This document shows positions 5,617 through 40,048 of a stretch of 64,000 nucleotides of DNA, piece after piece. A program made the position numbers and the translations under genes. This DNA comes from Nanobdellota archaeon (GTDB lineage: Archaea > Nanobdellota > Nanobdellia > Pacearchaeales > GW2011-AR1). The notes under the pieces are model-generated. The model ran no database searches, had not been told where the DNA came from, and worked only from the letters and a program-made list of their open reading frames with translations. Location of the stretch: NCBI GenBank assembly GCA_030647125.1, contig JAUSKC010000017.1, forward strand, positions 12,664 through 76,663. Direction: 5' to 3'. Position 1 is the first letter of the stretch; each line of letters opens with the position of its first letter.

Positions 5617-5737
5617 GAGCCTATAGCTCAGCCAGGTTAGAGCACCGCTCTTATATGAACGCAGTCCTTAAGGATTGTGATCTCTTGGAGATCTCTGAGA
5701 GAGGCGGGGGTCCACAGTTCAAATCTGTGTAGGCTCA
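5617..5737 (+). tRNA. tRNA-Ile (anticodon UAU) with a 46-nt intron at the canonical 37/38 position (intron 5656-5701)
   Basis: Hand fold:
- Acceptor gagccta/taggctc.
- D arm gctc-agccaggtta-gagc.
- Anticodon stem ccgct/ggcgg, loop c-t-TAT-a.
- T arm cacag-ttcaaat-ctgtg, discriminator a.
- Two 3-nt bulges separated by a 4-bp helix (ctta / tgag) place both splice sites symmetrically (BHB-like). Confidence 0.8.
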
Positions 5738-8504: not shown

Positions 8505-8516
8505 AAACATTTAAAT

Positions 8517-8558
8517 ATAACCATTATTTAGGTTATTATAACCATCATTGAGGTTATA
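8517..8558 (+). promoter_or_regulatory. two tandem palindromes ATAACC-N8-GGTTAT directly upstream of the MNT/HEPN pair (candidate operator)
   Basis: ataacc attattta ggttat (8517-8536) and tataacc atcattga ggttata (8537-8558), abutting the ATG at 8559. Confidence 0.5.
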
Positions 8559-9068
8559 ATGACAGATTTAATATATTTTCTAAAATCTAACAAAAGTTCA
8601 AGAAAGATTTTCGGTCAGAGAGAAATCAAAATAATTGAAAAACAACTTTATGGGATTAACTTAACTCAATCAGAAAAAAATCGACTTTCAAGGGATATAA
8701 GGGAAAAACTTAAACTAATCAAAGAACTTTCAAAATTTGAAGATGAATTTAGATTAAAAAAAGGAGCAAAAATCAAAGAAATTATTGAAGAAACAAAAGA
8801 AGTCATTCTTGAAGATGAACTTTCCAAGAAAATCAAGAAAATATTTTTGTTTGGAAGCACAGCAGAAAGACAAAGAAGCTTCAGATCAGATATTGATATA
8901 GCTATCGAATTCAAAGAAATAAATAAAGAGGATGCTAAGCTTTTTATGAAAAGAATGTTTGGGAAATTAAAAGAAGGAGTTCACATAAATATTTATAATA
9001 TTGTTCCAGATAAAATAAAAAAAGGGATTGATGAAAAGGGAGAGGTGATTTTTAATGGCGAGAATTGA
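8559..9068 (+). CDS. minimal nucleotidyltransferase (MNT/MntA-like antitoxin) with roughly 90-aa N-terminal extension
   Basis: LFGSTAERQRSFRSDIDIAIEF gives the GS...DxD NTase motif. It overlaps the downstream HEPN gene by 14 nt. Confidence 0.7.
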   Translation: MTDLIYFLKSNKSSRKIFGQREIKIIEKQLYGINLTQSEKNRLSRDIREKLKLIKELSKFEDEFRLKKGAKIKEIIEETKEVILEDELSKKIKKIFLFGSTAERQRSFRSDIDIAIEFKEINKEDAKLFMKRMFGKLKEGVHINIYNIVPDKIKKGIDEKGEVIFNGEN

Positions 9069-9453
9069 AGATAAAAAAGAGGAAATACAAAATTATCTAG
9101 AAGAGTTAGGGACAATCTTACCTCGAGATTTTGAAGAGTATCAAAGAGATTATGTAAAAAAGGCCGCTTGTGAAAGATATTTTGAAAGAATTATTGGGGC
9201 GGTCACAGACCTGGCATTTATATTTATAAAAGAAAATAAACTAAAAATTCCTGAAGAAGAAAAAGAGATTTTTGATATTCTAGTAAATGAAGAAATAATA
9301 AAAAAAGATCTTGGAGCAAGACTAAAAGATGCTAGGGGAATGAGGAATATTATTGCCCATCAATATGGCAAGGTTGACGATGAGATTGTGTTTGAATCAA
9401 TAACATCTCAATTAATTAAAGATATCGAAGAATTTATGGAGAAAATAGTATGA
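9055..9453 (+). CDS. HEPN/DUF86 (HepT-like) toxin
   Basis: RNIIAHQY matches the Rx4HxY HEPN RNase motif. Size and partner gene fit a type VII/HEPN-MNT toxin-antitoxin pair. Confidence 0.75.
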   Translation: MARIEDKKEEIQNYLEELGTILPRDFEEYQRDYVKKAACERYFERIIGAVTDLAFIFIKENKLKIPEEEKEIFDILVNEEIIKKDLGARLKDARGMRNIIAHQYGKVDDEIVFESITSQLIKDIEEFMEKIV

Positions 9454-17022: not shown

Positions 17023-18348
17023 ATGGAACAATTTGAAAAATTGAAATTAAGTAAAGGTATTTTACAAGTAATTCAAGAACTTAGATTTGAAGCGCCTAGT
17101 GAAATACAAGAAAAAACGATTCCTCTTATTATAGAAGGGAGAGATGTTATTGCTAGCTCGGCAACCGGTTCTGGAAAGACCTTGGCATTTGGTTCTGGTA
17201 TTATAGAAAGAGCAAAGCCCGGCGAAGGAATTCAAGCACTTGTGTTAACGCCGACAAGAGAACTTGCAGAACAAAATGCGCGAAGTTTAAATGTGTTTTC
17301 AAGAAATTATGGATTAAACATAAAAGAAATTTACGGCGGAGTTCCTATGAATCCACAAATAAGAAATTTAAGAAGCGCGGATGTAGTCGTCGGAACTCCA
17401 GGAAGAATCTTGGATCATTTAAGAAATAATACAATTAATCTTAGAAAAGTAAAGGTCTTAGTTTTGGATGAAGCAGACAGAATGCTTGAAATGGGTTTCA
17501 TAAATGACGTCGAGCAAATTATAAATGCATGCCCTAAAGAAAGACAAACACTTTTATTTTCCGCAACAATAGATAGAGATATTGAAGTTATTGGCTCGCG
17601 CTATATGAAGAATCCGGCGAGAGTTGAAGTTAAGTCGTATGTTGATCCGTCAAAATTAAAGCAATTTTTTTATGATGTTCCACAAAGCATGAAATTTTCA
17701 TTGCTTGTTCATTTGCTAAAAAGTGAGAAAGAGGGCTTAGTAATGGTTTTTTGCAATACAAGAATAAACACCGATTTTGTCGCAAACAATTTGAAAAGAC
17801 AAGGAATTAATGCAATGGCAATTCATGGTGGTTTGGCCCAGAATAATCGAAACAGAATTATGAAGGACTTTCATGCAGGAGAGGTTTTAATTTTGGTTTG
17901 CACAGATGTGGCGACACGTGGCTTAGATGTAAAAAACGTTTCACACGTTTATAATTATGACACGCCAATGACTGCAAAAGAATACATTCATAGAATAGGA
18001 AGAACTGCAAGAGCAGGAAAAGAAGGAGTTGCAATTAGTTTAGTTTCTTCACGGGACTATGAAAACTTTGGAAATGTCTGCAATGATGAGTCGTTAAAAA
18101 TTGAGAACGTTCCGGTTCCAGAAGTTGAAAATTTAATGGTTGAAATTGTAAAAAGAAGATATGGCGGAAGAGGAAACTTTAATGGTGGAGGGTCTGATAG
18201 AAATAGGGATTCTGGTAGAGGTAATGGAAGAAGTAATTCTAGGGGCTTCGCAAGAACTTCTGGAGGAAGTTCTAGAGGAAGAACTTCTGGAGGAAGTTCT
18301 AGAGGTTTTAGCCGTGGAAGATCTGATGGACCTAGAAGAAGGTATTAA
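17023..18348 (+). CDS. DEAD-box ATP-dependent RNA helicase with C-terminal RGG/SR-rich tail
   Basis: Q-motif, ATGSGKT, PTRELA, DEAD, SAT and HRIGRTARAG motifs. The tail contains a tandem nucleotide repeat encoding TSGGSSRG twice. Confidence 0.9.
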   Translation: MEQFEKLKLSKGILQVIQELRFEAPSEIQEKTIPLIIEGRDVIASSATGSGKTLAFGSGIIERAKPGEGIQALVLTPTRELAEQNARSLNVFSRNYGLNIKEIYGGVPMNPQIRNLRSADVVVGTPGRILDHLRNNTINLRKVKVLVLDEADRMLEMGFINDVEQIINACPKERQTLLFSATIDRDIEVIGSRYMKNPARVEVKSYVDPSKLKQFFYDVPQSMKFSLLVHLLKSEKEGLVMVFCNTRINTDFVANNLKRQGINAMAIHGGLAQNNRNRIMKDFHAGEVLILVCTDVATRGLDVKNVSHVYNYDTPMTAKEYIHRIGRTARAGKEGVAISLVSSRDYENFGNVCNDESLKIENVPVPEVENLMVEIVKRRYGGRGNFNGGGSDRNRDSGRGNGRSNSRGFARTSGGSSRGRTSGGSSRGFSRGRSDGPRRRY

Positions 18349-22341: not shown

Positions 22342-22728
22342 TTAAATGTTAGTATCTTTATTTTTGTAATCAAGACAGAATTTATCTGCGCCGTTGAAGA
22401 AAATTGCTAAAGTCGCAAAAGCCAAACCAAAATCCCTTATTGCTATTGCGTTGTATCCCATAGGCAAGGCTATAGCAAATAGGTGGACAGCCAAAACCAG
22501 CGACGAGAAACGGACGTACAATCCTGATATTAAAAATAAACCTAAAATAATTTCTAAAGAACCATTCATAAGCACAACAGTTCCGGGAGAGATTATCGAG
22601 GAGACGAATGGAGGAACAAAACCAGTCCAGCTTGTAGGAGAATAAATTTGGTTAATTCCAAACCATAAGAAGACAAGCGAAAGTGAAATTCGCAAAACTA
22701 TTTTCCCGTTTTCCCCATTAATTTTCAT
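22342..22728 (-). CDS. DoxX-like membrane protein
   Basis: 128 aa with four TM helices and an LRISLSLVFLWFG start typical of DoxX. Confidence 0.5.
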   Translation of the reverse strand: MKINGENGKIVLRISLSLVFLWFGINQIYSPTSWTGFVPPFVSSIISPGTVVLMNGSLEIILGLFLISGLYVRFSSLVLAVHLFAIALPMGYNAIAIRDFGLAFATLAIFFNGADKFCLDYKNKDTNI

Positions 22729-24469: not shown

Positions 24470-24516
24470 GTGCCTACCCTGGTATAGACCATATATAAAA
24501 TTATCTAAACGTCCGA

Positions 24517-24597
24517 CGCCTGCGCCAAGATTCGAACTTGGGGGCCACAAGGGCATGGTTTTCGAGACCATTCCGTTAACCGCTCCGGCACACAGGC
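24517..24597 (-). tRNA. tRNA-Ser (anticodon CGA), type II with long variable arm
   Basis: Hand fold of the reverse complement:
- Acceptor gcctgtg/cgcaggc.
- 3-bp D stem.
- Anticodon arm atggt-ctCGAaa-accat.
- Variable arm gcccttgtggccc.
- T arm ccaag-ttcgaat-cttgg, discriminator g. Confidence 0.85.
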
Positions 24598-24661
24598 ATG
24601 TAAAAATAAAGAATTAATGAATATAAAAACTTTACAAAATAAAAAAAATAAAAAATAACAA

Positions 24662-27561: not shown

Positions 27562-27639
27562 TTTGTGCGAACTTTGGTGTTACTTTTTTATGATAGTTCA
27601 AAATCTTTAAATAAAAGTTTGGTTTGAAACAAGTGCGAA

Positions 27640-27687
27640 ATACAACAGATGGTAAAGTTAATAGGTTATAAGTACAATATGTTGTAT
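27640..27687 (+). promoter_or_regulatory. two NrdR-box-like imperfect palindromes, centres 32 bp apart, upstream of nrdR-nrdA
   Basis: tacaacagatggta (27641-27654) and tacaatatgttgta (27673-27686). By my count they match 10/16 and 12/16 positions of the NrdR box consensus as I recall it (acaCwAtATaTwGtgt). Confidence 0.5.
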
Positions 27688-27701: not shown

Positions 27702-28142
27702 ATGGAATGCCCATACTGTTCAAGTACAAGATTTAAAGTAACGAACAAACGCAACTCTGAAGAGGGAATAAGACGAAGAAGGGAGTGTTTAAAGTGCGGG
27801 AAAAGATTTACTACGCAAGAAAAAATAGAGAAAGATGATATTTTTGTAATAAAAAAGGATGGAAGAAGAGAGCAATTTTTGAGAGAGAAGTTGCAGAACG
27901 GAATTTATAGGGCGTTTGAAAAAAGGCCGGTAGCAAAAGACAAGATAGACAAAATAGTTCAAGAAATTGAGGAGCAAATAAGAAAAATGGGTAAAAAAGA
28001 GGTAAAAAGTTCTACGATAGGGGAGATGGCTATAAGAAAGATAAAGAAAATTGATAATATTGCATATATAAGATTTGCTTCGGTTTACAGAGACTTTCAA
28101 GATATTAAAGATTTTAAGGAAGAATTGGAGATATTCGCATGA
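27702..28142 (+). CDS. nrdR: transcriptional repressor NrdR (zinc ribbon + ATP-cone)
   Basis: MECPYCSSTRFKVTNKR...RRRRECLKCGKRFTTQE zinc ribbon followed by an ATP-cone (VIKKDGRREQF...YIRFASVYRDF). GAGGTG lies upstream of the ATG at 27702. The track start GTG at 27696 is an alternative. Confidence 0.85.
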   Translation: MECPYCSSTRFKVTNKRNSEEGIRRRRECLKCGKRFTTQEKIEKDDIFVIKKDGRREQFLREKLQNGIYRAFEKRPVAKDKIDKIVQEIEEQIRKMGKKEVKSSTIGEMAIRKIKKIDNIAYIRFASVYRDFQDIKDFKEELEIFA

Positions 28143-31006
28143 CTGAAACAATTTCGTTAATGATTGTAAAAAGAAATGGGGATGTAGTAGGATTTGAGTC
28201 AGAGAAAATAAAAAATGCTATAATGAAAGCTGTTCGCGCGACGGACAACAAAATAGAAGAGGAATTGATGGATAAACTTATTTTTGATATTCAGCAGGAA
28301 ATTGAAGCGCGCTTCATTGATTTTTATCCTAATGTTGAGAATGTGCAGGACATTGTTGAGAAAAACCTGGTAAAAAATGGATTGTATGAAATCTCAAAGG
28401 CCTATATTCTTTACAGAGAAAAAAGAAAACTCGAAAGAGAAAAAGAAAAAGTTGAGAATCAGAAAAAAGTCCAGCTTGGAAGATTAAAAGTAAAAAAATC
28501 TGATGGAACAGCAGTTCTCTTTGACCTTGGAAAGATAAAGGAAAGTATTTTGGCTGCAGCCAGAGGTTATGAAAAGGACATCTCGGCCGATTCGATTATA
28601 AAAGAACTTGTCAAAAATATTTACGACGGCATAACAACTGAAGATATTCAAAAGTCACTAATTTTAGCATCGGTGACATTTATAGAAAAAGACCCTGCTT
28701 ATAATTATGTTTCTGGGAGATTGTTTTTGCAAAAACTTTTCAAAGAGGCAACAGGTGAATCAATTCTAAAAGCCGGCAAAAGTGAGAATTACAAAAAAGC
28801 ATTTATTTATGGGATACAAAAAGGTGTGGAAGAAAATTTATTTGACAAGCGGCTTTTAAATTTTGATTTAATTAAATTGGGAAATGCCCTTAAGATCGAA
28901 AGAGATGAACTTTTGCAGTTTATGGGAATTCAAACATTATATGAAAGATATTTTGCTAAAGTTGGAGAAAAAAGAATAGAAATGCCACAAGGTTTTTGGA
29001 TGAGAGTTGCTATGGGATTGTCAATTAAAGAAAAAAACAAAGATGAAAAGGCAATTGAATTTTATGACTTGCTTTCTTCACTTAGATATGTTTCCTCAAC
29101 ACCGACGCTGTTTCATTCCGGGACACTTCATCCGCAATTAAGCTCATGTTACTTGAATACTGTAATGGATGATTTGCATCATATTTTTAAGGTCTATGGG
29201 GATAATGCGCAATTATCAAAATGGTCTGGAGGTATTGGAACTGATTGGACAAATGTGCGTGCAACTGGAGCAACTATAAAAACAAATGGAGTTTCAAGCC
29301 AAGGCACCATTCCTTTTTTAAAAATTGCAAATGATGTTACTGTTGCAATAAACCGAAGCGGAAAAAGAAGAGGCGCAACTTGCGTTTATCTTGAGACATG
29401 GCATCTTGATATTGAGGATTTTTTGGATTTAAAAAAGAACACTGGCGATGAAAGAAGGAGAACGCATGACATGAACACGGCAAATTGGATTCCTGATTTA
29501 TTTATGAAAAGAGTTTTAAACGATGAAGAATGGACTTTGTTCTCGCCGGAAGAAGTCCCTGAACTGCATCACTTATATGGAAGAAAATTTGAGAAAAAAT
29601 ATGAAGAGTATGAAGAGGCAGCACGAAACGGCAAAATAAAAAAACACAAAACAGTTTCGGCCTTGAAACTTTGGAAGAAAATGTTAAGCATGCTGTTTGA
29701 GACGGGGCATCCATGGATTACATTCAAAGACCCGTGCAATATTCGCTCGCCTCAAGATCATGTTGGAGTTATACATAATTCTAACTTATGCACTGAAATA
29801 ACTTTGAATACTTCTGAAAAAGAGACCGCTGTCTGCAATCTTGGTTCCATAAATTTTGGAAAACATATAATTAATAATCAATTGGACAAGGAATTAATTG
29901 CAAAAACAGTTAGAACTGCCGTCAGAATGCTTGACAATGTTATTGACATAAATTTCTATCCGACGATAGAAGCAGAAATGTCAAACTTGCAACACAGACC
30001 AATTGGTTTTGGGATAATGGGTTTCCAGGATGCACTTTACATGTTAGATATTGATTTTGGTTCTCCAGAAGCAGTAACTTTTGCTGACAAAAGCATGGAA
30101 TTGGTTTCTTATTATGCAATCCTTGCATCGTCTGAATTAGCAAAAGAAAGAGGAAAATACGAGAGTTATTCTGGTTCGAAATGGGATAAAGGAATTTTCC
30201 CACTAGATACATTAAATTTAGTTGAAGAAGAAAGAGGATTGAAGATAAATGTTTCACGAGACGAGAGTTTGGATTGGACGCCAGTAAGAATGCATGTTAA
30301 ACAATTCGGGATGAGAAATTCAAACGTTATGGCAATTGCGCCGACAGCGACGATATCCACAATTTCTGGATGTTATCCGTGCATCGAACCTATTTACAAA
30401 AACATCTATGTCAAGGCTAATATGAGTGGGGAATTTACAGTTGTCAATCCATACTTAATTGAGGATTTAAAGAAAAATGGGTTATGGAATCAGGAAATGC
30501 TTGAGCAATTGAAATATTACGACGGCAATGTAGGCCTGATTGCAGGAATTCCAGATGAACTTAAAAGAAAATACAAAGAAGTTTTTGATATAGATGCAAA
30601 ACATTTAATTGATATTACTGCAGCTAGAGGAAAATGGATTGACCAATCGCAAAGTTTCAACTTGTTCATAAAAGGAGTTTCAGGAACTAAGTTAAGCGAA
30701 ACATATTTGTATGCTTGGGAAAAAGGGTTGAAAACAACTTATTATTTGAGAAGTTTGGCAGCATCGCAAATTGAGAAGTCTACGCTGAATGCAGAAAAAT
30801 ACGGGTTCACGCAAAAAAGAGAATATAAAAATTTTGATGTGTCAGAAAAAATTCAGGAAGTTGAACGACTTAAAGAAATTACTACAAAACAAAGGGCTGC
30901 CGCTTCAAATTTTGATCTTGAAATCGGCAATGAAATGTCAGCTACTGAATTTACAAATGGCAAAATTTGTTCCTTGCTTGATCCGGACTGCGAAGCGTGT
31001 CAATAA
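28139..31006 (+). CDS. nrdA: class I ribonucleotide reductase large subunit
   Basis: N-terminal ATP-cone, the SSCYLN and NLCTEI active-site motifs, and a C-terminal redox Cys cluster CSLLDPDCEAC. The start overlaps the nrdR stop. Confidence 0.9.
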   Translation: MTETISLMIVKRNGDVVGFESEKIKNAIMKAVRATDNKIEEELMDKLIFDIQQEIEARFIDFYPNVENVQDIVEKNLVKNGLYEISKAYILYREKRKLEREKEKVENQKKVQLGRLKVKKSDGTAVLFDLGKIKESILAAARGYEKDISADSIIKELVKNIYDGITTEDIQKSLILASVTFIEKDPAYNYVSGRLFLQKLFKEATGESILKAGKSENYKKAFIYGIQKGVEENLFDKRLLNFDLIKLGNALKIERDELLQFMGIQTLYERYFAKVGEKRIEMPQGFWMRVAMGLSIKEKNKDEKAIEFYDLLSSLRYVSSTPTLFHSGTLHPQLSSCYLNTVMDDLHHIFKVYGDNAQLSKWSGGIGTDWTNVRATGATIKTNGVSSQGTIPFLKIANDVTVAINRSGKRRGATCVYLETWHLDIEDFLDLKKNTGDERRRTHDMNTANWIPDLFMKRVLNDEEWTLFSPEEVPELHHLYGRKFEKKYEEYEEAARNGKIKKHKTVSALKLWKKMLSMLFETGHPWITFKDPCNIRSPQDHVGVIHNSNLCTEITLNTSEKETAVCNLGSINFGKHIINNQLDKELIAKTVRTAVRMLDNVIDINFYPTIEAEMSNLQHRPIGFGIMGFQDALYMLDIDFGSPEAVTFADKSMELVSYYAILASSELAKERGKYESYSGSKWDKGIFPLDTLNLVEEERGLKINVSRDESLDWTPVRMHVKQFGMRNSNVMAIAPTATISTISGCYPCIEPIYKNIYVKANMSGEFTVVNPYLIEDLKKNGLWNQEMLEQLKYYDGNVGLIAGIPDELKRKYKEVFDIDAKHLIDITAARGKWIDQSQSFNLFIKGVSGTKLSETYLYAWEKGLKTTYYLRSLAASQIEKSTLNAEKYGFTQKREYKNFDVSEKIQEVERLKEITTKQRAAASNFDLEIGNEMSATEFTNGKICSLLDPDCEACQ

Positions 31007-31024: not shown

Positions 31025-32215
31025 ATGGAAATTGAAAATGTAAAACGGCTTTTGGAAGTTAATCAATTGAAAATAGAAAAGATGACTTCCCAAATTATGG
31101 AACTTAATGATGAACTTTCAAATATAAAACTTTTAATGCTTAACTTAGAAAGACCGACGTTAGAAAATAAAGAAAACAAAAATGAATTTCAAGATAGAGA
31201 AGATGAAGATTATAGTAAAATAGGCATAATAAATAATTCAAAAACGGATCCGAATAAGATTTTGCCTATGAGATATTTGTGGGCGCGAGAACATTATAAA
31301 ACGGGCGTCGCAAACAATTGGGTTCCTGAAGAAATCCCCATGCAGGACGACGTTGAGCAATGGAAATCAGACAGGTTTTTGAACGAAACAGAAAGAAGAA
31401 TGATTATTTGGAATTTGGGATTTTTCTCTACTGCAGAATCTCTGACGGCAAACAATATTGTTTTGGCGGTTTATAATCATGTCACAAATCCTGAATGCAG
31501 ACAGTATTTGCTTAGACAAGCCTTTGAAGAGGCAATTCATACTGATACTTTCATTTATTGCTGTGATACTCTTGGTTTGAATCCTGATATGATATATAAT
31601 ATGTATAATACAATTCCTTCAATAAAAGAAAAAGATAATTTTGTAATTGAACTTACTAAGAGTGTCTTCGACCCTAATTTCTCTACGAAAGGAAAAGAAA
31701 ATGTAAGAAAATTTCTGCATGATTTAATAGGATATTATGTTATAATGGAAGGAATTTTCTTTTACGCAGGATTTGCCATGATGCTTGCTTTAAAGAGGCA
31801 GCATAAAATGATTGGAATAGGCGAGCAGTTTGAATTTATTATGAGGGATGAATCAATTCATTTGGCTTTTGGTTGCGATTTAATTAATACAATAAAAACG
31901 GAAAATCCTGAAATATGGAATGAAGAATTCAAAAATGAAGCGATTCAACTTATAAAAAAAGCAGTAGAACTTGAAAAGAAATATGCTTATGATGCATGTC
32001 CTCAAGGAATTTTAGGAATTAATGCTGAGCAATTTTGCAATTATGTTGAATACATTGCTGACAGGCGACTTGAAAGAATTGGTCTATTAAGAGTTTACAA
32101 TACAGAAAATCCTTTTCCTTGGATGTCACAATCAACAGATTTATCGAAGGAGAAAAACTTTTTTGAAACGCGCGTCACAGAATATCAGACCGCAGGAAAT
32201 TTAACTTGGGATTAA
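31025..32215 (+). CDS. nrdB: class I RNR small subunit, class Ic-like (Phe at the radical-Tyr position)
   Basis: YLWAREHYKTGVANNWVPEEIPM start region. Metal ligands are FFSTAES (Glu where class Ia has Asp) and EEAIHTDTF (E-x-x-H then Phe at H+4, codon 31550-31552). There is an N-terminal extension of about 80 aa, so the real start could be internal. Confidence 0.8.
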   Translation: MEIENVKRLLEVNQLKIEKMTSQIMELNDELSNIKLLMLNLERPTLENKENKNEFQDREDEDYSKIGIINNSKTDPNKILPMRYLWAREHYKTGVANNWVPEEIPMQDDVEQWKSDRFLNETERRMIIWNLGFFSTAESLTANNIVLAVYNHVTNPECRQYLLRQAFEEAIHTDTFIYCCDTLGLNPDMIYNMYNTIPSIKEKDNFVIELTKSVFDPNFSTKGKENVRKFLHDLIGYYVIMEGIFFYAGFAMMLALKRQHKMIGIGEQFEFIMRDESIHLAFGCDLINTIKTENPEIWNEEFKNEAIQLIKKAVELEKKYAYDACPQGILGINAEQFCNYVEYIADRRLERIGLLRVYNTENPFPWMSQSTDLSKEKNFFETRVTEYQTAGNLTWD

Positions 32216-32223
32216 TAACAATT

Positions 32224-32330
32224 GAGGACGAAAACATCAATAGATGTTTTAGGGATTAATGGAGGACGAAAACACTGTGGTGTTTTAGGGAATAATAGAG
32301 GACGAAAACACTGTGGTGTTTTAGGGAATA
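32224..32330 (+). repeat. three tandem 36-38 bp repeats, each with a palindrome (AAAACAC-TGTG-GTGTTTT type), between nrdB and nrdD
   Basis: The gaggacgaaaac unit starts at 32224, 32262 and 32298. Palindromes lie at 32231-32250 (aaaacatc aata gatgtttt), 32269-32286 and 32305-32322 (aaaacac tgtg gtgtttt). Confidence 0.9.
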
Positions 32331-32337
32331 AATAAAA

Positions 32338-35300
32338 ATGATAACAAAAGTAAGGAAACGTGATGGGAATGTTGTTCCGTTCGACAAAGAAAAAGTAACG
32401 GAAGCAATTTGGAAAGCTGCAAAAGCCGTTGGCGGACATGATAAAGAAATGGCAAAACACATTTCTGATTTAGTTGTTAAGGACTTAAATGAAAAATACG
32501 GAGACAATGCAATCCCTAGTGTGGAGAATGTGCAAGACATTGTTGAAAAAACTTTAATTGAAGATGGACGCGCAAAAACAGCCAAGGCATACATTCTTTA
32601 TAGAAAAAGTCATGAAGAACTAAGAGAAGTTAAGGGATTATTCGACACGATTGAAGTTGTCGATGATTATTTGGGATTGAATGACTGGATGATTAAGGAG
32701 AATTCAAATATGGGTTTTTCGCTTCAAGGGCTAAATAATTATATTGCGACTAAGATAATTACAAATTACTGGAATAGGCGAGTTTATCCTGAAGCAATAA
32801 GGGCCGCACACGAGAATGCGGAGATTCATATTCATGATTTAGGAACTTTGGGTGCGTATTGCGTCGGATGGGATTTGAAGGATTTGTTAATGACAGGATT
32901 TACTGGAGTTGCAGGAAAGGTTTCGTCAAGACCACCAAAACATTTTAGAACCGCATTAGGGCAGATGGTTAATTTCTTTTATACTTTGCAAGGCGAGACA
33001 GCTGGCGCGCAAGCATTTTCAAATTTTGATAGTTTATTAGCACCTTTTGTAAGATACGACGAATTAAATTACAAAGAAATCAAACAAGCAATGCAAGAAT
33101 TTTTGTTTAACCTTGCTGTTCCGACTCGCGTCGGATTTCAGTGCATGTCTGAAGATACACAAATTTTAACTCCAAATGGATGGAAGAAATATAACGAACT
33201 TAAAGAGGGAGAGATAATAAAAACATTTAACATTAAAGAAAAAGTTATAGAAGACAAACCCATAAAACGATTATTTGTAAGAGAATATAGTGGTGTTATG
33301 TATAACCTAAAAAATAGAATTCAAAACCAATTAATTTCTCCAGGACATAGGGTTGTAAGGAAAAAATTCCAGTCAGATGAGTATATTCTTGAAGAAATAG
33401 AAAAAGTGGAAAAAATGAAATCGCCATTTATAATTCCAATTGCTGCAAAAAATTCTTGTGAAGATATTAATTTATCAGATGAGCAAATAAAATTAATGGC
33501 TTGGATTATTGCTGAAGGCACAATAGAAAATTACACTTCACACAGGCATTCAGGAAGAGTTACAATATATCAATCTGCAATAAAAAACCCATCTAAATAT
33601 CAAGAGATAACTTCTTTACTGCAAGGTTTCAATTTAAATTATTCTGAAAATGATTCTACACCTGCTTTAGGAAGTTCAGTAAAAATGATGAGAATGAATG
33701 CTGAATCTTCCAGATTTGTGCATGCTTTGTTTGAGATGAAGAGAAATGTAAATTTTATTCCAGAGAAATTATTAAATATGAGTTCACGACAATCAAGATT
33801 ATTTTTGGAAACTTACCTTAAAGCAGATGGATTTGAAGGAGCTAAGATTGCCACAACAAATAAAGAAATTTTGCACGGACTGCAACAAATTGTCGTCAAT
33901 GCAGAATATGGTTTTACTGTTTTAAAAAGAGAACCGACTATCGGAACAAAACCAATTTATGTATTAAGACTAATTAAGCACAAGGAGACATATATTCAAG
34001 ATATAAAAAAAGTAGATTATAATGGCATTATTTGGTGCCCTAATACAGATAATGAGACAGTAATAGCCAAGAGAAAGGGAAAGGTCTTCATAACTGGAAA
34101 TACACCTTTTACAAATATAACAATGGATTTGAAAGTTCCGTCTTATATGAAAGAAGAACAAGTCATTATAGGAGGTCAGCCAATGAAAGAAACGTACAAA
34201 GAATTCCAAAAAGAAATGGACATGATTAACAAGGCCTTTGCAGAGTGCATGCTCGAAGGCGACTCACAAGGAAGGGTCTTCACTTTTCCTATACCTACTT
34301 ATAATATCACAAAGGACTTTGACTGGGATAATGAAAATTATAATTTAATATGGGAAATGACTGCAAAATACGGAATTCCTTATTTTAGCAATTTCATAAA
34401 TTCTGACATGAATCCAGAAGATGCGAGAAGTATGTGCTGCCGTCTGCGTTTAGACCAGACAGAATTAAGAAAAAGAGGAGGGGGACTTTTTGGAGCAAAT
34501 CCACAAACTGGCAGTGTTGGGGTTGTGACGATTAACATGCCACGGCTTGGATTTACATGCGTTACTGAAGAAGAATTTTTCTCAAAATTAAACAATTTAA
34601 TGGAGCTTGCAAAAGAAAGTTTGGAAATTAAGAGAAAAACACTAGAACGATATACTGAAATGGGACTTTATCCTTATTCTAAATTTTATTTGAGAAGTGT
34701 CTATCAAAGATTTGGACAATACTGGAAGAATCATTTCTCAACTATAGGATTGTTGGGAATGAATGAATGCATTGTCAACTTTATGCCTGACGAAAATATA
34801 ACAACAGAAAGAGGAAGAAAATTCGCATTGAAGGTCTTGCATTTCATGAGATCTAAATTAGAAGAATACCAAGTTGAGACAGAAAATATTTACAATCTTG
34901 AAGCGACTCCTGGTGAGGGAACGAGCTACAGATTTGCGCGAGAGGACAAAAAAAGATTTGGTAGAATTATTGTTGCAAATGAAAAAGTTGTAAAAGAAGG
35001 TAAGGCAAAACCCTACTACACAAATTCAACCCATATTCCAGTTAATTTTACCGATGATCTTTTTGAAGCGCTTGACTTGCAAGATGAGTTGCAAGTCCAA
35101 TACACTGGCGGAACGGTTCTTCATAGTTTCATAGGAGAGAAAATAAATAAAGATGGGGTAAAAATTCTTGTTAGAAAAATTGCTGAGAATTATCACTTGC
35201 CTTATTTTACTATAACCCCTACATTTTCAGTTTGCCCAATTCATGGGTATCTTGCTGGAGAGCATGAGTATTGCCCTCGGTGCGATGAAGAACACGGAAT

Positions 35301-35343
35301 AAGCAACGAAACGGGTTTGCTGATTAAACAAAAAGATAAATAA
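32338..35343 (+). CDS. nrdD: class III (anaerobic) ribonucleoside-triphosphate reductase, intein-containing, ending before the glycyl-radical loop
   Basis: ATP-cone, the AEIHIHDL motif, GFQ|intein|TPFTNIT, and a C-terminal VCPIHGY...YCPRC zinc motif. The ORF stops at TAA 35341-35343. Confidence 0.9.
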   Translation: MITKVRKRDGNVVPFDKEKVTEAIWKAAKAVGGHDKEMAKHISDLVVKDLNEKYGDNAIPSVENVQDIVEKTLIEDGRAKTAKAYILYRKSHEELREVKGLFDTIEVVDDYLGLNDWMIKENSNMGFSLQGLNNYIATKIITNYWNRRVYPEAIRAAHENAEIHIHDLGTLGAYCVGWDLKDLLMTGFTGVAGKVSSRPPKHFRTALGQMVNFFYTLQGETAGAQAFSNFDSLLAPFVRYDELNYKEIKQAMQEFLFNLAVPTRVGFQCMSEDTQILTPNGWKKYNELKEGEIIKTFNIKEKVIEDKPIKRLFVREYSGVMYNLKNRIQNQLISPGHRVVRKKFQSDEYILEEIEKVEKMKSPFIIPIAAKNSCEDINLSDEQIKLMAWIIAEGTIENYTSHRHSGRVTIYQSAIKNPSKYQEITSLLQGFNLNYSENDSTPALGSSVKMMRMNAESSRFVHALFEMKRNVNFIPEKLLNMSSRQSRLFLETYLKADGFEGAKIATTNKEILHGLQQIVVNAEYGFTVLKREPTIGTKPIYVLRLIKHKETYIQDIKKVDYNGIIWCPNTDNETVIAKRKGKVFITGNTPFTNITMDLKVPSYMKEEQVIIGGQPMKETYKEFQKEMDMINKAFAECMLEGDSQGRVFTFPIPTYNITKDFDWDNENYNLIWEMTAKYGIPYFSNFINSDMNPEDARSMCCRLRLDQTELRKRGGGLFGANPQTGSVGVVTINMPRLGFTCVTEEEFFSKLNNLMELAKESLEIKRKTLERYTEMGLYPYSKFYLRSVYQRFGQYWKNHFSTIGLLGMNECIVNFMPDENITTERGRKFALKVLHFMRSKLEEYQVETENIYNLEATPGEGTSYRFAREDKKRFGRIIVANEKVVKEGKAKPYYTNSTHIPVNFTDDLFEALDLQDELQVQYTGGTVLHSFIGEKINKDGVKILVRKIAENYHLPYFTITPTFSVCPIHGYLAGEHEYCPRCDEEHGISNETGLLIKQKDK
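33142..34101 (+). mobile_element. intein (320 aa) with LAGLIDADG homing-endonuclease domain inside nrdD
   Basis: It starts with Cys (CMSEDTQILTPNGW, block A) and has an SPGH block B-like motif. The LAGLIDADG motifs are LMAWIIAEGT and LFLETYLKADGF. It ends ...KVFITGN followed by Thr+1, and the flanks rejoin as GFQ-TPFTNIT. Confidence 0.85.
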
Positions 35344-35355
35344 AAGGGAGGAAAA

Positions 35356-35511
35356 ATGGAACGAACAAAATGCGAGGTATATTCGAGAGTTGTTGGCTAT
35401 ATAAGGCCGGTACAGCAATGGAATGAAGGGAAGCAGGCAGAATGGGCTGATAGAAAAACTTTTGTTATCGACGGAAAATCAAAAGAACAAATTATTGAAT
35501 GTGTGGCTTAA
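35356..35511 (+). CDS. stand-alone NrdD C-terminal glycyl-radical segment (51 aa), in frame with nrdD, 12 nt after its stop
   Basis: Own translation: MERTKCEVYSRVVGYIRPVQQWNEGKQAEWADRKTFVIDGKSKEQIIECVA*. It carries the RVxGY glycyl-radical motif. GGGAGG lies 4 nt upstream of the ATG. Confidence 0.7.
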   Translation: MERTKCEVYSRVVGYIRPVQQWNEGKQAEWADRKTFVIDGKSKEQIIECVA

Positions 35512-38413: not shown

Positions 38414-40048
38414 TTAATTTTTTAAAAAACTAAAATCAATTGGCTTGTCTTGTTTATATTCTATTTGTATTCCCGCTTTTCTTAATTGTCTAACGGTATC
38501 GGCTTTTTGCAATTCGGCACCGAGATAAGACATATGAAGCCAGTCACCAACTCTTTTTTCAGCTAGCCATCTTTGTGCTTGTCTTACTGATGAAAAAGTT
38601 TCTGATTCTAAAACAGCGCTGCTTGTTGGATGAAGGTGCTCAATATAAAAATTATTCTCTTGATTAATCGAAATTGAATAATTCCCCCTAGGATCTTGAT
38701 TTAATTTACTCGCTTGATGTAGCGTATAAGTTCTATTATCTATCAAAGGAAATTCTTCTAAAGTTTTTTTAGCATTCTCTAATTGACCTCCATAAAAATG
38801 GGCAGAGCCGGAAATTGTGCTGACTGAACCCAATTCTAAAGAAAGTCCTCTTTGTTCAAAATTTGGCTGAACTCTTTCAAGAACAAGTTTTTGCAATTCT
38901 CTTATTCCTAAAATATTTGCAGGCCAGCCCTCGAACATATCATGAGTCGCAAAATAATTAATAACATGTAATTTAAAACTATCATCTGAATCGGGGCTTA
39001 TAGCCATAAAATGGGCTCCTCTTAAGCAAGGGGTCTCTGGAGCATTCATATGTCGTGCCACATTGTAGGAGGTTGCAAAGGCCTTTCCGGTATGCTCGCC
39101 GCCTTTTTTGGATAATTTTTTCACAGCATAATCAATTTGATTTATTACTTGTCCATCAGCGCGATGAGCAAATAGCTCTTCACCATAACAATAAGCGGAA
39201 CCTTCCAAAGGGTCGCCGTGAGTAAATTGATGAACATATTTTGCAACGGACTTTTCAAATTCAGGAATTCGCCCAAAAATTTCAGGTTTAACCAAAGTTT
39301 TGTAGTCCTCATTTCCTGTAACAATTGCAAAAGTTCCTACAGTATCTTTTTTTGAGTCCTCTCCTTCCAAAATTTTTACTTTTCCAAACCGGATTATATT
39401 ATCTAAAATGTCCAACCAGACCTCTTCAACAGTCACTCCGCGGATCATATATCCCATGTCTTCAGAAGGAAATGTCTCAGCAGTTTCTTTTCCAAGAGGA
39501 TATCTCATTCCAAAGTCCCTCCAAGGATCTTTAGAAAGTGAATGTGAAATCTCCCTTATTGCTGTTGCGGCGCTTTCATAGTCACCTTCGCGAACATTTT
39601 CTCTTAAATCGTGCACTTTAATATTTTTTCTAAGGGCGTCAAACTCTTGCAAAGGGATTTCTTCAGGCAGAATCAAGACCTTTTTATCTATTCCTTTTAT
39701 AGTATAGTCATCGTTAAACCCGTTGTTAAAAAAATTATTTAACATTGATCCTGTATTTGTCGGGTCTCTTCCCCAAGTTACTAATCTTCTTATATTTGGA
39801 TTTGCAAGAAGTTCTCGCAAAATTAAATTAACACCTCTAGGAGAAAAACACTGGCCTATTGCAGAATATTGTGAAACGTCAAGACGTTTTGCTAAGGGCT
39901 GCCTTTCAGTCCATAAAGTTGTTATTGCAAGAGGAGAATCAACATTTCCAACACTAACTTCATTTCTATGATAAACAGGCCAAACGGAAACAAGCTCGTC
40001 CAAAGATAATTTTTCTGGATTTGGAATATCAAACTCTTTTTCAGACAT
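38414..40048 (-). CDS. ThyA-like (thymidylate synthase fold) domain flanked by an MtrA-like N-domain and a DUF4346-like C-terminal segment
   Basis: - N-terminal part: VGNVDSPLAITTLW...LANPNIRRLVTWGRD, which is MtrA-like as I recall that family.
- Middle part: YCYGEELF...INQIDYAVKKL...ETPCLRGAHF...THDMFEGWPANI, which parallels the ThyA YGxxl / dQi / PCl / RSxDxxxGxPxN motifs.
- C-terminal part: HMSYLGAELQKAD...YKQDKP. Confidence 0.5.
   Translation of the reverse strand: MSEKEFDIPNPEKLSLDELVSVWPVYHRNEVSVGNVDSPLAITTLWTERQPLAKRLDVSQYSAIGQCFSPRGVNLILRELLANPNIRRLVTWGRDPTNTGSMLNNFFNNGFNDDYTIKGIDKKVLILPEEIPLQEFDALRKNIKVHDLRENVREGDYESAATAIREISHSLSKDPWRDFGMRYPLGKETAETFPSEDMGYMIRGVTVEEVWLDILDNIIRFGKVKILEGEDSKKDTVGTFAIVTGNEDYKTLVKPEIFGRIPEFEKSVAKYVHQFTHGDPLEGSAYCYGEELFAHRADGQVINQIDYAVKKLSKKGGEHTGKAFATSYNVARHMNAPETPCLRGAHFMAISPDSDDSFKLHVINYFATHDMFEGWPANILGIRELQKLVLERVQPNFEQRGLSLELGSVSTISGSAHFYGGQLENAKKTLEEFPLIDNRTYTLHQASKLNQDPRGNYSISINQENNFYIEHLHPTSSAVLESETFSSVRQAQRWLAEKRVGDWLHMSYLGAELQKADTVRQLRKAGIQIEYKQDKPIDFSFLKN

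Follow-up and report, generated by a model that had tools for sequence, protein, structure and literature searches.

Small intercistronic repeat elements are well known in bacteria, and literature searches found none reported for DPANN archaea. The mycobacterial interspersed repetitive units (MIRUs) are tandem, intercistronic and co-transcribed, contain open reading frames (ORFs) that overlap the neighbouring genes, and show empty as well as filled sites, with direct repeats of short length (Supply et al. 1997, summarised in PMC3184786). Further points of comparison are offered by repetitive extragenic palindromic (REP) sequences and bacterial interspersed mosaic elements (BIMEs) of enterobacteria and pseudomonads, miniature inverted-repeat transposable elements (MITEs) such as Correia/NEMIS and RUP, and the operator boxes of the regulator NrdR. 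The subject here is an array of three hairpin-bearing units between nrdB and nrdD, genes of the aerobic (class I) and anaerobic (class III) ribonucleotide reductase (RNR), in a 64-kb stretch of DNA from an uncultivated groundwater DPANN archaeon; the whole stretch is called the window, and all coordinates follow its numbering. The explanation that we prefer, with belief and doubt about evenly balanced, takes the array for a hairpin-bearing, MIRU/MITE-like insertion element of low copy number between cistrons, which would gain and lose units, form hairpins in the mRNA and slightly loosen the link of nrdD to nrdAB.

As in MIRUs, the units are direct tandem copies in gene orientation between operon cistrons, with filled and empty orthologous sites, short flanking direct repeats and a copy number that varies between relatives; small ORFs whose ends reach or adjoin the neighbouring genes may be a further parallel, but the solutions differ between the species and chance alone would give such ORFs at 5-46% per site. 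MIRUs, however, measure 40-100 bp and lie at ~40-50 dispersed loci, whereas the present units are 36-38 nt long (50 nt in a variant, type C, of a sister species), are dominated by a perfect central hairpin, occur at 2 loci in one operon of an AT-rich DPANN host, and have no sequence similarity to MIRUs. REP and BIME sequences are also short extragenic palindromes, often in operons, and their mRNA stem-loops stabilise upstream segments or alter cistron ratios, but they are G+C-rich, often alternate in orientation, number hundreds of dispersed copies and are linked to REP-associated tyrosine transposases (RAYTs). In contrast, the stems described here are A/U-rich, the repeats are direct and tandem, a single locus in 64 kb is occupied at a unitig depth of ~1-2x, and no RAYT was seen. 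MITEs share with the element the character of small non-autonomous inserts with target-site-duplication-like repeats, filled and empty sites and stem-loop potential, and they can be co-transcribed and supply expression signals. The present element is smaller than is typical of them and has no known parental insertion sequence, and its inverted repeat is central between asymmetric flanks, the unit ends GAGGAC and AGGGATT not being complementary. Since it lacks sequence similarity to these families, terminal inverted repeats and a high copy number, the element is an analogue, and not a member, of the MIRU, REP or MITE families. A palindromic element in the nrd operon of an NrdR-encoding genome also recalls an NrdR operator, and one of the unit types keeps the C4 and G13 of the NrdR box; the units nevertheless miss the box consensus and the linker rule, and the true site lies at 27640-27687.

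Hairpin units at the nrdB-nrdD junction

The stop codon TAA of nrdB (32213-32215) and the ATG of nrdD (32338) are separated by a spacer of 122 nt (32216-32337), in which three head-to-tail units of 38, 36 and 36 nt extend from 32224 to 32333, each containing a stem of 7-8 bp closed by a loop of 4 nt (Table 1). Unit 1 is of type A and units 2 and 3 are of type B; the tail of both B units begins AGGGAATAA, and their first 34 nt are identical, which points to a recent duplication. Unit 3 is separated from the nrdD ATG by AAAA. The preliminary description, made from the letters alone, had seen three tandem palindrome-bearing repeats filling the spacer, with palindrome centres 37 and 36 bp apart, and direct reading of the sequence bears out both statements. 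Tandem Repeats Finder recovers the repeats with a period of 36, 3.1 copies and a score of 164, the top tandem repeat of the window, and a separate repeat search returned the same unit register. Pfam agrees with the naming of the flanking genes as nrdB and nrdD, and finds NrdA and NrdR as well. Within the 64 kb, both the 32-nt unit (at most 3 mismatches) and its 12-nt 5' flank (at most 1 mismatch) are confined to the spacer, and none of the window shuffles attains the observed counts of unit or flank. Taken singly, the hairpins have folding energies of -5.2 to -7.0 kcal/mol each, and folding of the spacer as a whole gives a z-score of -3.4.

The array is no product of misassembly. In the source metagenome run, independent unitigs (k=31) span the A-B, B-B and B-nrdD junctions, the B-B junction lying in a single 62-nt unitig of depth 8.4. 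The exact 34-nt repeat has a unitig depth of 15.8 against 11-11.5 for its flanks, which indicates one A unit and two of type B, with B absent elsewhere in that genome.

Filled and empty sites compared with a sister species

A close comparison comes from a sister species in which NrdB is 95% and NrdA 97.7% identical to the window proteins and synonymous third positions are ~15% different. The same 81-nt nrdB-nrdD spacer was found there in 10 contigs from several groundwater samples. It reads TAACAATG GAGGACA-AAAACAC-TGCG-GTGTTTT-AGGGATTAATG GAGGACA-AAAACATC-AATA-GATGTTTT-AGGGATTAAA ATG, so that two units stand in the order B-A in the sister, as against A-B-B in the window. Judging from these sequences, the A and B hairpin types predate the species split. 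Their stems comprise 30 nt that are without change between the species, an outcome for which our arithmetic at ~15% divergence gives 0.85^30, or ~0.008, and the nrdA-nrdB spacer is scrambled over the same distance. The loop of the B unit is TGTG in the window and TGCG in the sister. Position 7 of the unit is G in all window units and A in all sister units, which suggests a concerted change. The terminal 8 nt of nrdB, GGGATTAA, which also form the end of nrdB in the outgroup L003, are found again where unit 1 ends on its 3' side (32252-32259) and at the 3' ends of both sister units; units 2 and 3 carry GGGAATAA in their place.

A covariance model built from the five units at this junction (three from the window and two from the sister) recovered a third sister unit between nrdR and nrdA, at 20.2 bits and with ~25 of 29 constant positions matched. 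This locus, of type C, reads gcATGA TAATAAATGAAGACG AAAACATTTCT TTC AGAAATGTTTT AGAGGTTTTT GCATGA ctg. Its leader (TAAYAA..ATGRAG.AC), its AAAACA/TGTTTT basal stem and its AGRG tail are shared with the other units, and its distal stem is different and longer, giving a perfect stem of 11 bp. GCATGA stands on both sides of the insert as a direct repeat. At the same junction the window has only the 4-nt ATGA overlap of the two genes (gcATGActg), which looks ancestral; the outgroups have 1-23 nt there.

The six units can be aligned on constant flanks, 5' AATGGAGGAC(G/A) and 3' AG(G/A)G, and on the constant basal stem AAAACA/TGTTTT, above which the distal stem is variable yet perfectly paired (1, 2 or 5 bp) and closed by a loop of 3-4 nt; it is the distal stem and loop that define types A, B and C. 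All units lie in the sense orientation of the operon. Every one of the 48 stem cells pairs (48/48), six basal pairs being invariant; one pair switches between C-G and U-A (three units each), and the next occurs as CG, UA and UG. While the stems are 7, 8 or 11 bp long, the loop keeps to 3-4 nt. As the half-sites of a dimeric DNA-binding protein must stand at a fixed spacing, the variable stem favours a folded single strand, be it RNA or single-stranded DNA. It is known, however, that template switching at DNA palindromes can make 'compensatory' stem changes in one step, without selection on RNA (PMC8794818). The preliminary description had named covariation in orthologous spacers as a check: complete pairing with switches of pairs was indeed found, but as template switching could mimic it, the covariation is suggestive and not proof.

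Beyond these loci the element was sought at increasing distance. With filters off, the covariance model found no other copy in the 64-kb window at E<0.4; in ~1.07 Mb of related loci the sister nrdR-nrdA unit was the one further related sequence; and in searches at >=80% identity the unitigs from the source run and from three runs of the sister species matched only at the known loci. The repeat is thus not one that is dispersed through the genome with no link to nrd genes, one of the outcomes that the preliminary description had named as refuting, as neither the window nor the related loci nor the unitigs hold dispersed copies. A weak match of the model at 22607-22647 (+) (14.3 bits, E 0.46), antisense within a minus-strand ORF, has unit-like flanks (AATGGAGGAACAAAAC ... 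TAGGAGAATAAAT) without the palindromic core and is probably due to chance. No unit and no comparable tandem hairpins were seen downstream of nrdB among NrdB relatives in 80 GTDB genomes, and relatives with 81-87% identical NrdB (P0002, P0003, P0004, P0006, P0008, P0030) or 77% identical NrdB (P0105) lack the unit; distant Woesearchaeota with adjacent nrdB and nrdD have spacers of 3-21 nt without units. When a second sister region was sought via the hydroxyacid dehydrogenase of the window, the next-best match was only 71% identical.

The earlier statement that no described element has exactly this form holds for searches of Rfam, IMG/VR and the JGI metagenomes. Rfam (15) gave no gathering-score match to the array in the window, and none at E<=10 in 32100-32450. 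The pattern GGACGAAAAC-N6-16-GTTTTAGGG matched 26 loci in JGI metagenomes and 2 in IMG/VR, in unrelated contexts and with non-palindromic cores, as expected of chance matches, and a broader R-containing pattern gave 0 matches in IMG/VR. A phage origin was considered and dismissed: a blastn search of the operon against GenBank phages returned only weak matches to RNR genes, from which it follows that the sequence is not a phage.

Operon context and rival explanations

The host is a DPANN archaeon and not a bacterium. Its archaeal markers include an Rpb1/Rpb2-type RNA polymerase, a 138-aa NusA-KH protein, S12, S7 and a 730-aa elongation factor of EF-2 size, in archaeal order, together with a tRNA in the window that presumably contains an intron; the nearest relatives are from groundwater and are annotated as Woese- or Nanoarchaeota. 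The window has a GC content of 33%. As the host is archaeal, bacterial terminator logic is not directly applicable. The gene order is nrdR (27702), nrdA, nrdB, the array, nrdD, a 51-aa ORF, orf244, nrdG, dut and dcd.

A promoter matrix was built from 35 leaderless gene starts of the window (training median 7.6). When aligned, these starts have TTTWTAAA, a TATA box, at -29 to -22 from the ATG, and at -36 to -32 an A-rich stretch resembling a B recognition element; a TATA box at that distance implies that most mRNAs are leaderless. Motifs resembling a Shine-Dalgarno (SD) sequence (GGAGG, GGTGA) occur mainly ahead of internal cistrons or leadered genes, and most genes of the window are without one. 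In the leaderless register nrdD scores -10.2, and the best position in the spacer reaches 2.96, the corresponding scores being 9.44 for orf244 and 6.98 for the site upstream of nrdR; the matrix scan found no promoter-like sequence for nrdD in or after the array. Since nrdD is without a promoter-like sequence, and a promoter and NrdR boxes stand upstream of nrdR, the array most likely lies inside a polycistronic, NrdR-controlled nrdR-nrdA-nrdB-nrdD mRNA. The segment 27597-27701 is a complete archaeal-style NrdR regulatory region, near-identical in the sister species, and the position of its boxes downstream of the TATA box suggests roadblock-type repression in an archaeal promoter context.

The inserts carry translation signals of their own. 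Extra stop codons stand at their start, a TAA after the nrdB TAA and, in the sister, TAATAA after the nrdR TGA, and bridging ORFs are present at all three filled sites. The window has a single 37-codon ORF from a TTG start; at the sister nrdB-nrdD junction the nrdB stop is followed by 5 nt, an ATG..TAG frame (9 aa), 6 nt, an ATG..TAA frame (12 aa) and 1 nt before the nrdD ATG; and at the sister nrdR-nrdA junction a 19-aa ORF runs from the ATGA that overlaps the nrdR stop to the ATGA that overlaps the nrdA start, reproducing the original overlap at both ends. The bridging ORF of the window is not a conserved protein and is possibly a re-initiation relay. A coding role of the spacer was rejected: neither the 37-aa ORF nor the two antisense ORFs of the spacer has a Pfam match or is conserved, and the sister has stops in the 37-aa frame.

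On the preferred reading, a small (~36-50 nt) non-autonomous hairpin element would have settled in the nrd stop/start junctions of one DPANN lineage, having entered by insertion or duplication at a junction in the common ancestor of the two species. Its later growth, contraction and reshuffling would be due to slippage or unequal recombination between the direct repeats on either side. It would be transcribed within one nrdR-nrdA-nrdB-nrdD mRNA, each unit forming a modest stem-loop (-5 to -7 kcal/mol), and its own stop codons, bridging short ORF or ORFs and SD-like motifs (GGAGG, AGGG) would make the insert tolerable, since with these signals translation of the downstream cistron could survive by re-initiation. 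The net effect would probably be a mild, copy-number-dependent uncoupling of nrdD from nrdAB, and the 3' end of the upstream mRNA segment may be protected; the element is probably not a dedicated switch. The tiny genomes of DPANN archaea are assumed to be streamlined, and the locus is a clean case of filled and empty sites; such an element would insert exactly at stop/start overlaps, duplicate the junction and bring signals by which the operon stays translatable. As a compact natural system, it could serve the study of translational coupling and re-initiation in a mostly leaderless archaeon. If unit number does tune the ratio of aerobic to anaerobic RNR, the array would act as a simple and evolvable rheostat at oxic/anoxic groundwater interfaces; if the array is only tolerated junk, it would still illustrate the rise and turnover of palindromic minisatellites in reduced genomes.

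Several observations weigh against this interpretation. Every known copy lies inside one operon, which is unexpected of a mobile element and also compatible with a role specific to nrd, or with duplication or gene conversion of a purely local kind. The only inverted repeat is the central hairpin, none being terminal, and neither a transposase gene nor a RAYT-like one was noticed in the window. The carriers are two genomes only, a minimal comparative depth, and the covariance match between nrdR and nrdA is by itself statistically marginal (E 0.16-0.31). The template switching mentioned above also counts here. As to the translation signals, units 1 and 3 have ATT and ATA, respectively, in place of the ATG that opens the mini-ORF in unit 2, so that this ATG is lost in 2/3 of the window units; the bridging solutions differ between the species; and since shuffled spacers yield such chains at the 5-46% per site already given (~0.25 for the chain of the window), the re-initiation relay is only weakly supported.

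The hairpins might instead be a dedicated RNA-level regulator of the balance between class I and class III RNR, acting as protein-binding or cleavage sites or as REP-like stabilisers of 3' ends, with the result that nrdRAB and nrdD messages would differ in stability or translation. We consider this possible but on the whole unlikely. The restriction of all copies to the nrd operon (nrdB-nrdD in both species, nrdR-nrdA in one), their invariable sense orientation, flanks and stems conserved beyond the synonymous background, a hairpin backed by covariation and variable stem length, and a location within a probable polycistronic transcript would all suit a regulator; less suited to it are the differing number and order of units between the sisters, the empty site in the window, the close outgroups examined, which do without the element, the weakness of the hairpins (-5 to -7 kcal/mol) and the lack of a matching Rfam family. 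Distinctly unlikely, in our view, is a purpose-built archaeal intercistronic module in which a lineage-specific RNA-binding protein or nuclease would read the units via a GAGGAC(R)AAAACA...UGUUUUAG(R)G frame and so set the output of nrdD (in the sister also of nrdA) by copy number; were it true, it would add a second, post-transcriptional layer of control over dNTP supply, mobile within the operon. At the other extreme, the array could be a minisatellite without function, formed by duplicating the junction locally in tandem, whose palindromes are kept by template switching and which is neutral for expression. That both hairpin types and the flanks are unchanged at ~15% synonymous divergence, with the neighbouring spacer scrambled, makes this account rather unlikely, as does the related unit at a second junction 4 kb off, which simple local duplication leaves unexplained, and the improbability that a 122-nt structured insert would be expression-neutral in an SD-poor genome of leaderless type; it would nonetheless accommodate the variation in copy number and order between species, the 34-nt identity of units 2 and 3, the outgroups without the element and the ability of template switching to create and maintain perfect stems (PMC8794818).

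Two functional readings of the preliminary description, stacked terminators and an NrdR operator array, are not supported; its third, a signal in the mRNA for processing or for uncoupling the two kinds of RNR gene, is plausible. As a transcription attenuator or terminator array, the spacer would cause polymerase to pause or stop at each hairpin and T-run and so reduce read-through into nrdD, and it does have TTTT at the end of each hairpin and three such sites in series between the genes of the aerobic and the anaerobic enzyme. Archaeal termination uses oligo-T tracts. Many gene 3' ends of the window have a run of T5-T8 within ~40 nt, but the spacer has three T4 runs only, paired in the A/U-rich stems, which thus absorb the U-run, and T4 is common inside genes at 33% GC. 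With 1-2 G-C pairs and T4 inside the stem, the units fall short of an intrinsic terminator (a G+C-rich stem and at least 5 unpaired T); a scan for bacterial sigma-70 promoters and terminators found nothing in the spacer, although its model is bacterial and the host archaeal. Moreover, as nrdD has no promoter of its own, efficient termination would silence both nrdD and the 51-aa glycyl-radical ORF that follows it, and we regard attenuation as highly unlikely. We give still less weight, and indeed very little, to a duplex-DNA operator array through which NrdR or another dimeric factor would control an internal nrdD promoter, despite the three regularly spaced palindromes, the NrdR encoded in the operon and the C4 and G13 that the B-type 16-mer keeps. 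NrdR boxes are 16 bp long, partly palindromic, with conserved C4, A6, A8, T9, T11 and G13, and come as two boxes with a linker of 15-16 or 26-27 bp (PMC13584703). The palindrome-centred 16-mers, AAACACTGTGGTGTTT in B and AACATCAATAGATGTT in A, match 3/6 and 2/6 of these positions, the linkers from unit to unit are 21 and 20 bp, outside both ranges, and the strict core pattern CNANATNTNG has no match in 32216-32337. The arm spacing differs by 2 bp between A and B, and by more in C, so that no single dimer geometry can suit every unit; neither the array nor the sequence after it holds anything promoter-like, and canonical boxes occur in the operon only upstream of nrdR. Next to no credence is due to the last possibility, that the 37-aa TTG ORF of the spacer codes for a small repeat protein or that the spacer is a degenerate CRISPR-like mini-array of 28-nt repeats GTTTTAGGGAATAATAGAGGACGAAAAC with 8-10 nt 'spacers'. 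The reading frame is open across the whole array, but it is not conserved, with stops in the sister, and has no Pfam match; the sister sequence all but refutes this last possibility. In a shifted register the repeat begins GTTTTAG and ends GAAAAC, as many CRISPR repeats do; the 'spacers', however, are palindromic and far below CRISPR spacer size (~25-40 nt), and no cas domain was found among the Pfam-scanned ORFs of the window, a scan that covered part of it. Inspection alone led to the dismissal of K-turn/L7Ae, bulge-helix-bulge and FNR-box motifs, and likewise of a split ribosome-binding-site hairpin, for which the folded SD-to-AUG distance is 12-17 nt and is not conserved.

Table 1. Coordinates of the array, its associated reading frames and the nrd genes and signals (window numbering)
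Feature	Position	Strand	Remarks
TATA box TTTAAATA of predicted nrdR-operon promoter	27606-27613	+	matrix score 6.98; predicted transcript start ~27635
NrdR box 1 ATACAACAGATGGTAA	27640-27655	+	5/6 conserved positions
NrdR box 2 GTACAATATGTTGTAT	27672-27687	+	6/6 conserved positions; 16-bp linker to box 1
nrdR (Zn-ribbon + ATP-cone)	27702-28142	+	Pfam; true start ATG 27702 after SD GAGGTGA (automatic ORF call: GTG 27696)
Empty site GCATGA (nrdR stop overlapping nrdA start)	28137-28142	+	sister: 50-nt C-unit segment and second GCATGA, 56 nt added
nrdA, class I RNR large subunit	28139-31006	+	Pfam
nrdB, class I RNR small subunit	31025-32215	+	Pfam; last 8 nt GGGATTAA
Insert leader TAACAATT	32216-32223	+	holds second in-frame stop TAA; sister-species counterparts TAACAATG and TAATAAATG
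Bridging ORF, TTG start, 37 codons	32222-32335	+	from 6 nt after nrdB stop to 2 nt before nrdD ATG
Unit 1, type A, 38 nt	32224-32261	+	GAGGACG-AAAACATC-AATA-GATGTTTT-AGGGATTAATG
Unit 1 hairpin	32231-32250	+	8-bp stem AAAACATC/GATGTTTT, loop AATA
Mini-ORF MEDENTVVF* in unit 2	32259-32288	+	ATG overlaps TAA of unit-1 frame (TAATG)
Unit 2, type B, 36 nt	32262-32297	+	GAGGACG-AAAACAC-TGTG-GTGTTTT-AGGGAATAATA
Unit 2 hairpin	32269-32286	+	7-bp stem AAAACAC/GTGTTTT, loop TGTG
Unit 3, type B, 36 nt	32298-32333	+	GAGGACG-AAAACAC-TGTG-GTGTTTT; hairpin 32305-32322
nrdD, class III RNR	32338-35343	+	Pfam; intein-like insert at residues 269-588

Other features of the window

The RNR genes themselves have some unusual traits. 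NrdB has an N-terminal extension of ~64 aa (residues 1-64; 31025-31216) that is matched in full only in the sister species (coverage of 100%, as against 83-89% in other relatives). NrdD (1001 aa) contains an intein-like insert of ~320 aa at residues ~269-588 (33142-34101), which is absent from the NrdD of outgroup L003. The sister NrdD, of 1656 aa, has that insert and two more of ~1 kb each (L110 6509-7483 and 9059-10060), and it gives weak LAGLIDADG and intein-splicing matches in Pfam; as the number of inserts differs, intein content differs between the sister species. The 1001-aa nrdD ORF ends ...CPRCDEEHG...KDK*, and a separate 51-aa ORF (35356-35511), preceded by the SD sequence GGGAGG, encodes MERTKCEVYSRVVGY... 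with the glycyl-radical motif RVxGY. This split, common to the sister species, would reflect either a separate glycyl-radical polypeptide or a recoding event.

Elsewhere in the window, two tandem 21-nt palindromes (ATAACC-N8-GGTTAT; 8516-8557) are flanked by a TATA-like TTTAAATA on one side and, on the other, by the ATG of a nucleotidyltransferase gene (MNT-like, Polbeta/NTP_transf_2; 8559-9068) that overlaps a 132-aa ORF (9055-9453); the palindromes look like the autoregulatory operator of a toxin-antitoxin-type pair. Rfam places a 121-nt tRNA, presumably intron-containing, at 5617-5737 (53 bits), which ARAGORN did not report, and ARAGORN in turn gives a tRNA-Ser at 24515-24598 that Rfam did not list. 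Near the 3' end of a DEAD-box helicase gene (17023-18348) there is a perfect tandem repeat of 27 nt x 2 (AAGAACTTCTGGAGGAAGTTCTAGAGG) at 18252-18305. Adjoining dut/dcd, a 544-aa ORF (38414-40048, minus strand) joins MtrA-like and pterin-binding (DUF4346) regions to a thymidylate-synthase-like segment, and from this composition it may be an unusual fused enzyme of thymidylate synthesis.

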